Source: a virus
DNA length: 47,718 bases
UHGV virus genome: UHGV-0289063
Direction: 5' to 3' (one strand)
Of this stretch, positions 21 through 47,718 are shown piece after piece (within the stretch, counting starts at the first letter, position 1; the number at the start of each line of letters is the position of its first letter). Made by a program: the position numbers and the translations under genes. Below the pieces are notes generated by a model. That model worked only from the letters and a program-made list of their open reading frames with translations. It ran no database searches and was not told the DNA's origin.

Positions 21-40
21 TTGCCCCATCCATGCCCCAC
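21..40. repeat. Copy 1 of a ~19-bp direct repeat (ttgCCCCATCCATGCCCCAc). The second copy is at 228-247
   Basis: Exact 15-mer CCCATCCATGCCCCA occurs at 25-39 and 232-246. The match extends to 18/19 bases with one mismatch. Confidence 0.6.
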
Positions 41-227: not shown

Positions 228-247
228 TGTGTCCCATCCATGCCCCA
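228..247. repeat. Copy 2 of the direct repeat, immediately 3' of the umuD'-like stop codon
   Basis: Same 15-mer as at 25-39. The two copies flank a ~190-bp AT-rich segment that contains the perfect 12-bp palindrome GGTTATATAACC (81-92). Confidence 0.6.
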
Positions 248-637
248 TTACATCACTGGGCAATCGTCGAACTCACCCGAACGCGCATCATTGATGATGT
301 ACGTGATGACTCCGAATATCGGCTTGTCGTCGTCTGATATCTCACCAACCTTGCGCAGCCTCTCACGCTTGCCGTTCTCCAGATTCTCCAGATGCGGTTG
401 CGGGTGTGTCCTGTAACGTTTAATCCTGAACTCACCATCAACAGCACAAACAAGTAGTGATCCGTCACATGGAGATAGTGACGAATCGACTACCAGCATT
501 GCACCATTAATGATTCCGGCGCGCAGATATGTCGCGCCAGCAATCATCATGTAAGTGGCAGAAGGATGCGCGATAAGGCGCTTGTCGAGCGATATGCGCT
601 CTTCTACGTAGTCTGCTGCTGGCGATGGAAACCCCAT
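248..637 (-). CDS. umuD: UmuD'-like protein of the S24 family. It begins at the position that corresponds to the processed UmuD' N-terminus, and the catalytic Ser is replaced
   Basis: Protein starts MGFPSPAADYVEERI; compare E. coli UmuD, which is cleaved at C24^G25 (FPSPAADYVEQRI...). Strong colinear similarity through to the C-terminus. The ASGDSM serine motif reads AGATYL here, while the Lys (FRIKRY) is retained. RBS GGAGG lies 7 nt upstream. A LexA box lies just upstream. Confidence 0.75.
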   Translation of the reverse strand: MGFPSPAADYVEERISLDKRLIAHPSATYMMIAGATYLRAGIINGAMLVVDSSLSPCDGSLLVCAVDGEFRIKRYRTHPQPHLENLENGKRERLRKVGEISDDDKPIFGVITYIINDARSGEFDDCPVM

Positions 638-654
638 AATGCACCTCCGATTTT

Positions 655-674
655 AACTGTATATGTATACAGTA
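655..674. promoter_or_regulatory. LexA (SOS) box in the divergent umuD'/gtrA promoter region
   Basis: aaCTGTatatgtatACAGta matches the consensus taCTGT-N8-ACAGta. It sits 18-37 nt upstream of the umuD' start codon. Confidence 0.8.
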
Positions 675-750
675 TTATCTATTTGCAGTGTCGATCAATA
701 GCGTTTGTGGTGCTACACTTCAGACCTTTCTGAATTCACTGATTTCTATA

Positions 751-45921: not shown

Positions 45922-46088
45922 AGAGTAACGCGGCAGCGCGCCGTCTGCTTGGCATGAACCACTGGCGCAGCAATACGCAGCAAATGCAGTACGTTTCGTG
46001 GCATGTAGCAGCAAGAACAGGAAAACCAGCCCCTGGGTGGATTGCTGTGCGAACGCACAGTTCTGATTTCTGCTATTTCACCGACTGA
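45918..46088 (+). CDS. 56-aa hypothetical protein, below the ORF-track threshold
   Basis: Its ATG overlaps the upstream TGA (ttATGAag). Confidence 0.35.
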   Translation: MKSNAAARRLLGMNHWRSNTQQMQYVSWHVAARTGKPAPGWIAVRTHSSDFCYFTD

Positions 46089-46152
46089 CGCAACTGATAG
46101 CCAGTTATGAGCTGGCTATTGGGTGCGAAAGCACTGCTCCGTTATCCCTTTT

Positions 46153-46182
46153 GCCCGGCCCCGCGCCGGGCTTCTTTTTTTG
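46153..46182 (+). terminator. Strong intrinsic terminator ending the early-left operon, upstream of xis
   Basis: GCCCGGC-CCCGC-GCCGGGC followed by TTCTTTTTTTG. Confidence 0.8.
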
Positions 46183-46195
46183 CCTGGAGACACCC

Positions 46196-46438
46196 ATGAG
46201 CGAAATGACTTTAATCGTGCCCAACGACTGGGTAACACAAGATAAGCTCGTCGAGATTACCGGCCTTCGCCCGGGAACTATCGAGGCAGCTCGTAAAAAG
46301 TCCTGGATGGTTGGGCGCGAATATCTTCACGTTGCACCAGACGGTAATCCAAAAGAAAACAGCGAGTGCATGTACAACCGCAAGGCTGTCGACAAGTGGG
46401 TTGAGAGCATGTCAAAGAAACAGCCTGGTGCGCGCTAA
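46196..46438 (+). CDS. xis: Excisionase-like protein (small DNA-binding protein immediately upstream of int)
   Basis: 80 aa (MSEMTLIVPNDWVTQDKLVEITGLRPGTIEAARKKSWMVGREY...). RBS GGAGA. Its position relative to int is typical of lambdoid xis. Confidence 0.55.
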   Translation: MSEMTLIVPNDWVTQDKLVEITGLRPGTIEAARKKSWMVGREYLHVAPDGNPKENSECMYNRKAVDKWVESMSKKQPGAR

Positions 46439-46486: not shown

Positions 46487-47718
46487 ATGGCTAAGTCAGC
46501 ATACCCAACAGGCGTGGAGAACCATGGCGGTACGCTCCGCATATGGTTCATCTATAAAGGCAGCCGGGTGCGTGAAAGCCTCGGCGTGCCGGATACACCA
46601 AAAAACAGAAAGGTCGCTGGCGAGCTGCGCGCGTCGGTGTGCTTTTCGATTAAGACCGGCAACTTCAACTATGCGGCCCAGTTCCCAGACTCGCCTAACC
46701 TGAAAAGGTTTGGGGTGGAGAGCAAGGAAATCACCGTTCTGGAGCTGGCGAACAAGTGGCTTGAACTGAAGCGTATGGAGATCAGCACCAACGCGATGTC
46801 ACGCTATGCGTCTATAGCGCGCAACATGGTGCCCAGGATTGGTGGGGACAGGCTGGTATCTGCGGTAACGCAGGAAGATCTGCTGTTTATCAGAAAGGAA
46901 TTACTTACCGGTTATCACACCCTGAAGGCAGGACAGAAAACGCCGGTTAAAGGCCGCTCTGTCAGAACGGTCAACAACTACATGAAGATCATGGGCGGGA
47001 TGTTTAAGTTTGCCGCCGACAGCGGTTATGTCCGGGTGAATCCGTTTACCGGGATCGCCATGCTTAAGCGTTCTCGATGCGAGCCCGACCCGCTGACGCG
47101 TGAGGAGTTCGTCAGGATGATTAATGCCTGCGCCCACCAGCAGCTGAAAAACATGTGGTCGCTGGCCGTCTACACCGGTGTGCGCCACGGCGAACTCGTT
47201 TCGCTGGCCTGGGAAGATATCGACCTGAAAGCGGGCACAATGATGATCCGCCGGAACCACACGTTAACGAAGGAGTTCACCCTCCCGAAGACGGAGGCCG
47301 GGACGGACCGCATCATCAACCTTATTCAGCCAGCTATCGACGTGCTGAAGAGCCAGGCAGAATTAACACGCCTGGGTAAGCAGTATCAGGTTCAGGTGAA
47401 ACTGCGCGAGTATGGCCGTACTGATGTGCATCCGTGCACGTTCGTGTTCAACCCGCAGATCGCATCACGTAATGGCCGTGCCGGGCATCATTACGCAGTG
47501 GGGTCGATTAACCAGTCGTGGGAAGCGGCAATGCGACGCGCCGGGATTCGCTATCGCAGAGCATACCAGTCCCGACACACGTATGCATGCTGGTCGTTAG
47601 CTGCCGGTGCTAACCCGAACTTCATCGCGAAGCAAATGGGCCATACCGACGCGCAAATGGTTTACCGGGTGTACGGATCCTGGATGGCTGAAAATAACCA
47701 GGACCAAGTACTCATCCT
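46487..47718 (+). CDS. int: Tyrosine integrase (lambda Int family), C-terminally truncated by the window end
   Basis: RBS AGGAGG. N-terminal arm-binding-like domain (YPTGVENHGGTLRIWFIYKGSRVRESLG). C-terminal catalytic-domain motifs ...RHTYACW...GHTDAQMVYRVYGSW. Not in the ORF track because it lacks a stop within the window. Confidence 0.85.
   Translation, partial: MAKSAYPTGVENHGGTLRIWFIYKGSRVRESLGVPDTPKNRKVAGELRASVCFSIKTGNFNYAAQFPDSPNLKRFGVESKEITVLELANKWLELKRMEISTNAMSRYASIARNMVPRIGGDRLVSAVTQEDLLFIRKELLTGYHTLKAGQKTPVKGRSVRTVNNYMKIMGGMFKFAADSGYVRVNPFTGIAMLKRSRCEPDPLTREEFVRMINACAHQQLKNMWSLAVYTGVRHGELVSLAWEDIDLKAGTMMIRRNHTLTKEFTLPKTEAGTDRIINLIQPAIDVLKSQAELTRLGKQYQVQVKLREYGRTDVHPCTFVFNPQIASRNGRAGHHYAVGSINQSWEAAMRRAGIRYRRAYQSRHTYACWSLAAGANPNFIAKQMGHTDAQMVYRVYGSWMAENNQDQVLI

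Follow-up and report, generated by a model that had tools for sequence, protein, structure and literature searches.

Organization of the Locus

The window, the whole 47,718-nt stretch of DNA analyzed here, is the genome of a lambdoid siphovirus from the Enterobacter cloacae complex and is 87–93% identical, in patches, to the Enterobacter phages ENT1, BHUENT3/6, and CobraSix. The genes around the feature under study run in the order xis (46151–46438), int (46487 to the window end), humD on the minus strand, gtrA (ATG at 751), gtrB, a gtrC-type gene, and a tail fiber/spike gene, also on the minus strand. If the sequence is circular, the int ORF at 46487–47718 continues in frame into positions 1–64, giving a joined protein of 431 aa; the window thus has the look of a complete, circularly permuted phage genome with its ends inside int. 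An 18-nt direct repeat occurs on either side of the spacer between int and humD; its two copies are 208 nt apart and may be integrase arm-type sites of attP. The features of the humD region are collected in Table 1.

Table 1. Features mapped in and around humD (window coordinates)
Feature	Coordinates	Strand	Remarks
18-nt direct repeat, copy 1	22–39		TGCCCCATCCATGCCCCA; int–humD spacer
Terminator-like hairpin 3′ of humD	98–122	−	Weak, T-poor tail; low confidence
18-nt direct repeat, copy 2	230–247		TGTCCCATCCATGCCCCA; abuts the humD stop codon
humD CDS	248–637	−	129 aa, ATG start, from the ORF listing; HumD-family pretruncated UmuD′ homolog
Codons for C-terminal extension SGEFDDCPVM plus stop	248–280	−	Absent from UmuD; tail itself 251–280
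Shine–Dalgarno sequence GGAGG	644–648	−	6 nt before the humD ATG, read from the sequence
LexA (SOS) box	655–674		TACTGTATACATATACAGTT on the humD strand; two mismatches to consensus; unique credible site
Candidate −10 of humD promoter, TACTGT	669–674	−	Inside the LexA box; putative
Candidate −35 of humD promoter, TTGATC	693–698	−	Putative; holds GATC; TCGATCAA conserved in most humD–gtrA intergenic modules
Candidate extended −10 of divergent gtrA promoter, TGcTACACT	711–719	+	TGnTAnACT conserved in 9 of 11 aligned humD–gtrA intergenic regions

GC content is 37–47% across the humD–gtr–tail fiber region versus about 54% in the tail genes, a low value typical of accessory cargo. humD itself is an accessory gene (a "moron"), with attP/int on one side and the gtrABC operon for O-antigen modification on the other. 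Enterobacter phage MII_003 has the identical layout of int, humD (−), and gtrABC (+), which also recurs at the end of an E. coli prophage adjoining dacD. In RefSeq, the E. coli prophage gene beside gtrA carries the label "HumD family translesion DNA polymerase." An Rfam scan of positions 1–1200 gave no meaningful hit; OxyS scored 17 bits, short of its gathering score of 75.

The Product Is Assigned to the HumD Family of Preshortened UmuD′ Homologs

The protein encoded at 248–637 begins MGFPSPAADYVEERI. Over its entire length (residues 1–129 of 129), it matches the NCBIfam model NF051876, "HumD family translesion DNA polymerase," at 217 bits (cutoff 120); with the model of autoproteolytic UmuD, NF007621, it reaches 90.7 bits, under the cutoff of 110. 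It also matches Pfam Peptidase_S24 and belongs to PHROG 811, "UmuD-like." Residues 2–118 match the UmuD′ structure 1umu in the PDB (E = 9e-23), and a structure–sequence search placed both 8gmt and 8gms among the homologs. From these matches, we predict that the product adopts the UmuD′ fold. AlphaFold2 run on a 74-sequence family alignment, too shallow at identities of at least 71% throughout, gave a mean pLDDT of 49.

The alignments place the start of the protein exactly at the UmuD processing site. Its Gly2 corresponds to Gly25 of full-length UmuD (PDB 8gmt_B) and to residue 1 of UmuD′ (1umu); the product has no N-terminal arm and no Cys/Ala–Gly cleavage site. The initial annotation had proposed that the protein begins where RecA-mediated cleavage generates UmuD′ and is colinear with UmuD′ to its end. 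The start is borne out by the alignment, but the colinearity is not: the product carries a 4-residue insertion and a 10-residue C-terminal extension. The ATG is the first start after an in-frame TAA six codons upstream, which excludes an N-terminal extension from an upstream non-ATG start, and the good ribosome binding site noted earlier is the GGAGG that precedes it.

In phage records searched with tblastn, the product is 81% identical to HK639 "UmuD," 75% to HK140 gp028, 67% to N15 gp26, and 65% to P1/P7 HumD. All of these begin M-GFPSPA, and they end ...NDARSGEFDDCPV(M/I/L) with the exception of HK140, whose tail is ...NDARSGEFDDYPLK. A word-indexed protein search with the humD product yielded 588 clusters at 90% identity, the nearest proteins coming from Enterobacter; of the best 120 clusters, 102 have a length of exactly 129 aa and 110 start with MGFPSPA. 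Several gene models (P0019, P0038, P0040, P0047, P0099, and P0114) are 135–148 aa long and run upstream through the LexA box (...TVYIYSIYRRCN-MGFPSP). To judge from their sequences, these longer models, RefSeq entries included, look like miscalled starts.

On this evidence, the window gene is assigned to humD, a member of the HumD family of phage and plasmid-prophage UmuD′ homologs that are preshortened at the gene level. The gene type is already known, P1 HumD being a published preactivated, LexA-regulated UmuD′ homolog without umuC. The initial annotation had thus rederived the published description of a curated family, and the gene is not new: by itself, it is an ordinary further HumD homolog in an Enterobacter temperate phage. 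All four parts of its headline (a LexA box, a pretruncated UmuD′ form, no catalytic serine, and no umuC in cis) nevertheless stand.

Loss of the Catalytic Nucleophile Is Shared Across the Family

The ASGDSM motif of UmuD aligns with A-GATYL in the humD product, so that Ser60 of UmuD corresponds to Thr36, and Lys97 of UmuD corresponds to Lys73 within FRIKRY. That the catalytic serine is gone and the general-base lysine retained had both been read correctly, although the nucleophile change is a specific substitution by threonine and not a simple deletion. The Ser–Lys dyad of self-cleaving S24 peptidases is accordingly replaced by Thr36 and Lys73. Among the best 120 of the 588 clusters, the residue equivalent to Ser60 is Thr in 113, Ser in 4, Ala in 2, and Ile in 1; that equivalent to Lys97 is Lys in 66, Met in 47, Arg in 5, Ser in 1, and Leu in 1.

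We also compared the 150 best 50%-identity representatives from an exhaustive profile search, some of which are fragmentary metagenomic calls. In this set, both Ser and Lys are kept in 2 of 36 pretruncated proteins versus 49 of 67 proteins with an N-terminal arm. The difference argues that dyad decay is a trait of the HumD family, not a peculiarity of the window gene, and suggests that the nucleophile is lost once the cleavage substrate is gone. Eight further representatives (P0151, P0157, P0173, P0203, P0228, P0233, P0235, and P0262) are pretruncated UmuD′-like proteins of 115–124 aa that begin M[GAS]FPSP, are without the EFDD tail, and are highly degenerate at both catalytic positions, so that truncated forms of UmuD′ are not confined to the HumD family proper.

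A LexA Box Sits in a Putative umuDC-Like Promoter

The LexA box upstream of humD has a perfect CTGT-N8-ACAG core and is separated by 17 nt from the ATG. The 20-mer is the sole such match in the 47.7 kb, and none of 100 shuffled sequences gave one. "Perfect," the word first applied to it, holds for the core but not for the full 20-mer, which departs from the LexA consensus at two positions. The only other CTGT-N8-ACAG of the window, at 46045–46060, is unlikely to be a LexA box on account of its GC-rich spacer. This element, CTGTGCGAACGCACAG, is perfectly palindromic and rich in GC; it lies about 100 nt before the excisionase ORF and may serve as a different operator.

The distance from box to ATG is much the same in related systems, at 17 nt in HK639 and 19 nt both in E. 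coli umuDC and for the annotated LexA site of P1 humD. We examined 38 HumD-type loci from one-genome-per-species contigs and found the core 16–19 nt from the ATG in 20 of them and two tandem boxes in 5 others. Loci from Kluyvera, Klebsiella, and Citrobacter (L022, L028, L030, L034, and L036) represent a HumD sublineage with tandem LexA-type boxes ∼45 and 21 nt before the ATG. humD has been named as a LexA-regulated SOS gene (PMC9603915), and the box at its usual place supports the predicted LexA regulation of the window gene as a member of the SOS regulon.

A consensus sigma-70 scan of positions 1–1200 found no promoter. However, the sequence upstream of humD in the window reads TTGATC-N18-TACTGT, with the last hexamer running into the box, and E. 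coli umuDC and HK140 both read TTGATC-N17-TACTGT at the same place. By analogy with these two, humD seems to retain the umuDC promoter–operator design, and we infer that the CTGT-N8-ACAG operator overlaps the −10 element of the humD promoter. The proposal that the gene would make Pol V fire immediately on LexA derepression finds no support in this arrangement. The humD and umuDC boxes are equally close to consensus, with two mismatches each, so that immediate firing is not implied; moreover, host umuC would also need derepression.

On the other side of the intergenic region, the candidate extended −10 of gtrA is conserved even in the divergent loci L011 and L033. The divergent humD and gtrA promoters share the palindrome TTGATCGA/TCGATCAA at positions 691–698, where their candidate −35 regions overlap; it contains a Dam GATC site and is conserved in L003, L009, L018, L024, and L026. 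Phase variation of gtr by Dam and OxyR as in P22 is unlikely, the intergenic region holding a single GATC.

HumD Genes Are Almost Always Separate from umuC

A tblastn search with E. coli UmuC over the whole window found no umuC (best E = 1.5), which extends to the rest of the window the initial report of a missing umuC partner. A umuC just past the window end is likewise ruled out, since humD is followed by an att-type spacer and then the 3′ end of int, and relatives have int or host dacD at the corresponding position. umuC is absent within 4 kb at 37 of the 38 HumD-type loci; in the same scan, nearly all full-length umuD loci have umuC directly downstream.

The one exception is a natural humD–umuC operon in Cedecea sp. 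S5-13 (L039:3960-5654; NZ_JBHIKW010000004.1). There, the LexA box TACTGTATGTATAAACAGTA lies 17 nt before a 125-aa pretruncated HumD (183 bits with NF051876), an intact UmuC (851 bits) follows 10 nt after humD, and a gene for a phage Rha-family regulator is nearby. The operon provides genomic-association evidence for a HumD–UmuC partnership.

The Conserved C-Terminal Tail Resembles the SSB Tip

Like the rest of the HumD family, the window protein carries a conserved extension (...NDARSGEFDDCPVM) past the UmuD terminus. The tail ranks with the best-conserved parts of the family: across 74 sequences, E122, F123, and D124 are invariant and D125–M129 are at least 90% conserved. When the HumD tail GEFDDCPVM is counted from its C terminus against the E. 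coli SSB tip MDFDDDIPF, the [D/E]-F-D-D stretches fall in register and both sequences end in a hydrophobic residue. The two differ at their ends, SSB with Pro at −1 and a final Phe, HumD usually with Pro at −2 and a final Met, Ile, or Leu. The Pro–Phe terminus, critical in SSB, is thus usually absent from HumD and confined to rare members of the family; among distant HumD-type representatives, tails of ...EFDDTPF and ...EFHDNLPF occur.

The SSB C terminus docks more than 14 genome-maintenance proteins (PMC5872125). The resemblance raises the tentative idea, which we consider possible but doubtful, that the HumD tail is a functional mimic of the SSB C terminus that would either dock HumD2–UmuC on SSB-partner sites or compete with SSB. 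If so, HumD would change the place and time at which translesion synthesis is recruited, beyond providing a shortcut past RecA-mediated cleavage. This could explain why phages keep a UmuD′ of their own and why truncation and tail travel together in the main family. A literature search found no mention of the resemblance between the HumD tail and the SSB tip.

Proposed Function and Alternative Readings

We consider it probable, at roughly three chances in four, that humD encodes a LexA-repressed, ready-made UmuD′ surrogate that dimerizes and activates host UmuC, whose presence is assumed, after damage, bypassing RecA-mediated processing. The reading is drawn by analogy, and the functional data behind it all come from P1 HumD, which shares 65% identity with the window protein. 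In a lysogen, LexA would keep humD off; DNA damage would derepress it, and the product would dimerize and bind host UmuC, the complex with RecA* making up a Pol V-like translesion polymerase. The slow RecA-mediated cleavage of UmuD to UmuD′ would be skipped, which would favor lesion bypass in host and phage DNA around prophage induction. The surrogate model gives no role to the conserved C-terminal tail.

Pairing with host UmuC, suggested from the start, is the mode of action reported for the founding member, P1 HumD. According to McLenigan et al. (1999; J Bacteriol 181:7005), the P1 protein is UmuD′-sized and without a umuC partner, reportedly complements UmuD′ functions in vivo, and is said to form dimers and to bind UmuC and RecA filaments in vitro. 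Good complementation reportedly occurs only on overexpression, native expression is said to be poor, and the physiological role is held to be uncertain even in P1.

Two other readings of the gene itself have to be weighed against the surrogate. That humD is a functionless, decaying umuD remnant might be suspected from the lost catalytic serine and from the existence of pseudogene relatives, one with an in-frame stop after 28 codons (Salmonella phage BTP1) and one with an internal stop (L016). However, pairwise dN/dS of the window gene against relatives with estimable dS is 0.08–0.15 in 19 comparisons, with dS near saturation, which points to purifying selection at a dN/dS of about 0.1 and rules out a dead gene in the window. 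The exact length of 129 aa in 102 of the best 120 clusters and the conserved start, ribosome binding site, LexA box, and C-terminal tail speak against decay as well, and we regard the remnant reading as effectively refuted. The BTP1 locus (LT714109.2; L089:2388-2880) has the same module of gtrA, LexA box, and humD; its humD pseudogene starts MEFPSPAADY and is frameshifted beyond the early stop, and the record annotates there only a hypothetical ORF on the opposite strand. A living gene could still act mainly as a regulator or decoy and not as a polymerase subunit: having no cleavable arm, its product would occupy the groove of the RecA* filament or bind UmuD or UmuC. It would then modulate cleavage of LexA or the phage repressor, the UmuD checkpoint, or recombination and so tune prophage induction. 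The S24 domain is what UmuD and LexA alike use to bind RecA filaments (8gmt and 8gms are homologs of the product), P1 HumD reportedly binds RecA filaments too (McLenigan et al. 1999), and the dyad is dispensable in the HumD family. In addition, humD is dispensable for P1 lytic growth (PMC10695390). Against this, P1 HumD is reported to restore and not to block UmuD′ function (PMC7092418), the Cedecea operon argues for a productive partnership with UmuC, and nothing in the sequence specifically favors a decoy. We therefore think a mainly regulatory role unlikely.

A separate proposal concerned the neighboring operon: through the shared LexA box, divergent gtrABC would be SOS-responsive as well, and DNA damage would change O-antigen modification. 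Seven sequences, namely the window and six phage or prophage loci, share the conserved 119-bp humD–gtrA intergenic module with its box, the two candidate −35 regions overlap at the palindrome, and the P1 record annotates its LexA site for both humD and the divergent lxr. However, relative to the likely start of gtrA transcription, the box is centered near −60, outside the usual repression positions at −35, −10, and +1. In uninduced lysogens of BTP1, which has an intact box beside the decayed humD, gtrA ranks with the most strongly expressed of the prophage genes (10.1101/787010). Moreover, humD has the same box in many loci without gtr genes, and the box thus belongs to humD. The suggested link between SOS and the seroconversion operon is left unsupported and seems to us very improbable.

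Preactivated, LexA-controlled UmuD′ genes are carried widely by enterobacterial prophages as cargo at the att/int boundary. In lysogens, they could increase mutagenesis after DNA damage and thereby favor the emergence of resistance. Worth noting for the family are the decay of the dyad once the cleavage substrate is gone, the natural humD–umuC operon, and the strongly conserved SSB-tip-like tail.

Comparison with Known Systems

P1 HumD (GenBank AAQ14073) is, like the window protein, 129 aa long, starts M-GFPSPAADYVE at the UmuD′ N terminus, carries the C-terminal extension ...NDARSGEFDDCPV(I/M), and belongs to the same NCBIfam equivalog; both genes have a LexA site 17–19 nt before the ATG and no umuC in cis. 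At 65% identity, the two proteins differ at the nucleophile position, where P1 HumD retains Ser (ADSHH) and the window protein has Thr. The settings differ too: P1 humD lies in the order lxr–humD–phd/doc on a plasmid prophage, whereas the window gene belongs to an integrating lambdoid siphovirus, in which attP/int and gtrABC flank it.

HK639 "UmuD," HK140 gp028, N15 gp26, phiKO2 gp23, and "UmuD" of Enterobacter phage vB_Ecl_MII_003 are of the same family, at 65–81% identity and with Thr at the nucleophile position. As in the window, their genes lie at the tail-fiber/att/int boundary of temperate phages. In HK639 and an E. coli AST198 prophage, the lysine has also been lost (to Met), whereas the window gene keeps it. 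In HK140, unlike in the window, humD comes second in a LexA-boxed operon divergent from dinI.

E. coli UmuD/UmuD′ is about 45% identical to the humD product over residues 2–118 and, by sequence, probably of the same fold; umuDC shares with humD a near-identical position of the LexA box and the TTGATC-N17/18-TACTGT arrangement upstream. In contrast to E. coli UmuD, the humD product has no 24-residue N-terminal arm and no Cys24–Gly25 site, has Thr in place of Ser60, carries a 4-aa insertion and a 10-aa C-terminal tail, and is not cotranscribed with umuC.
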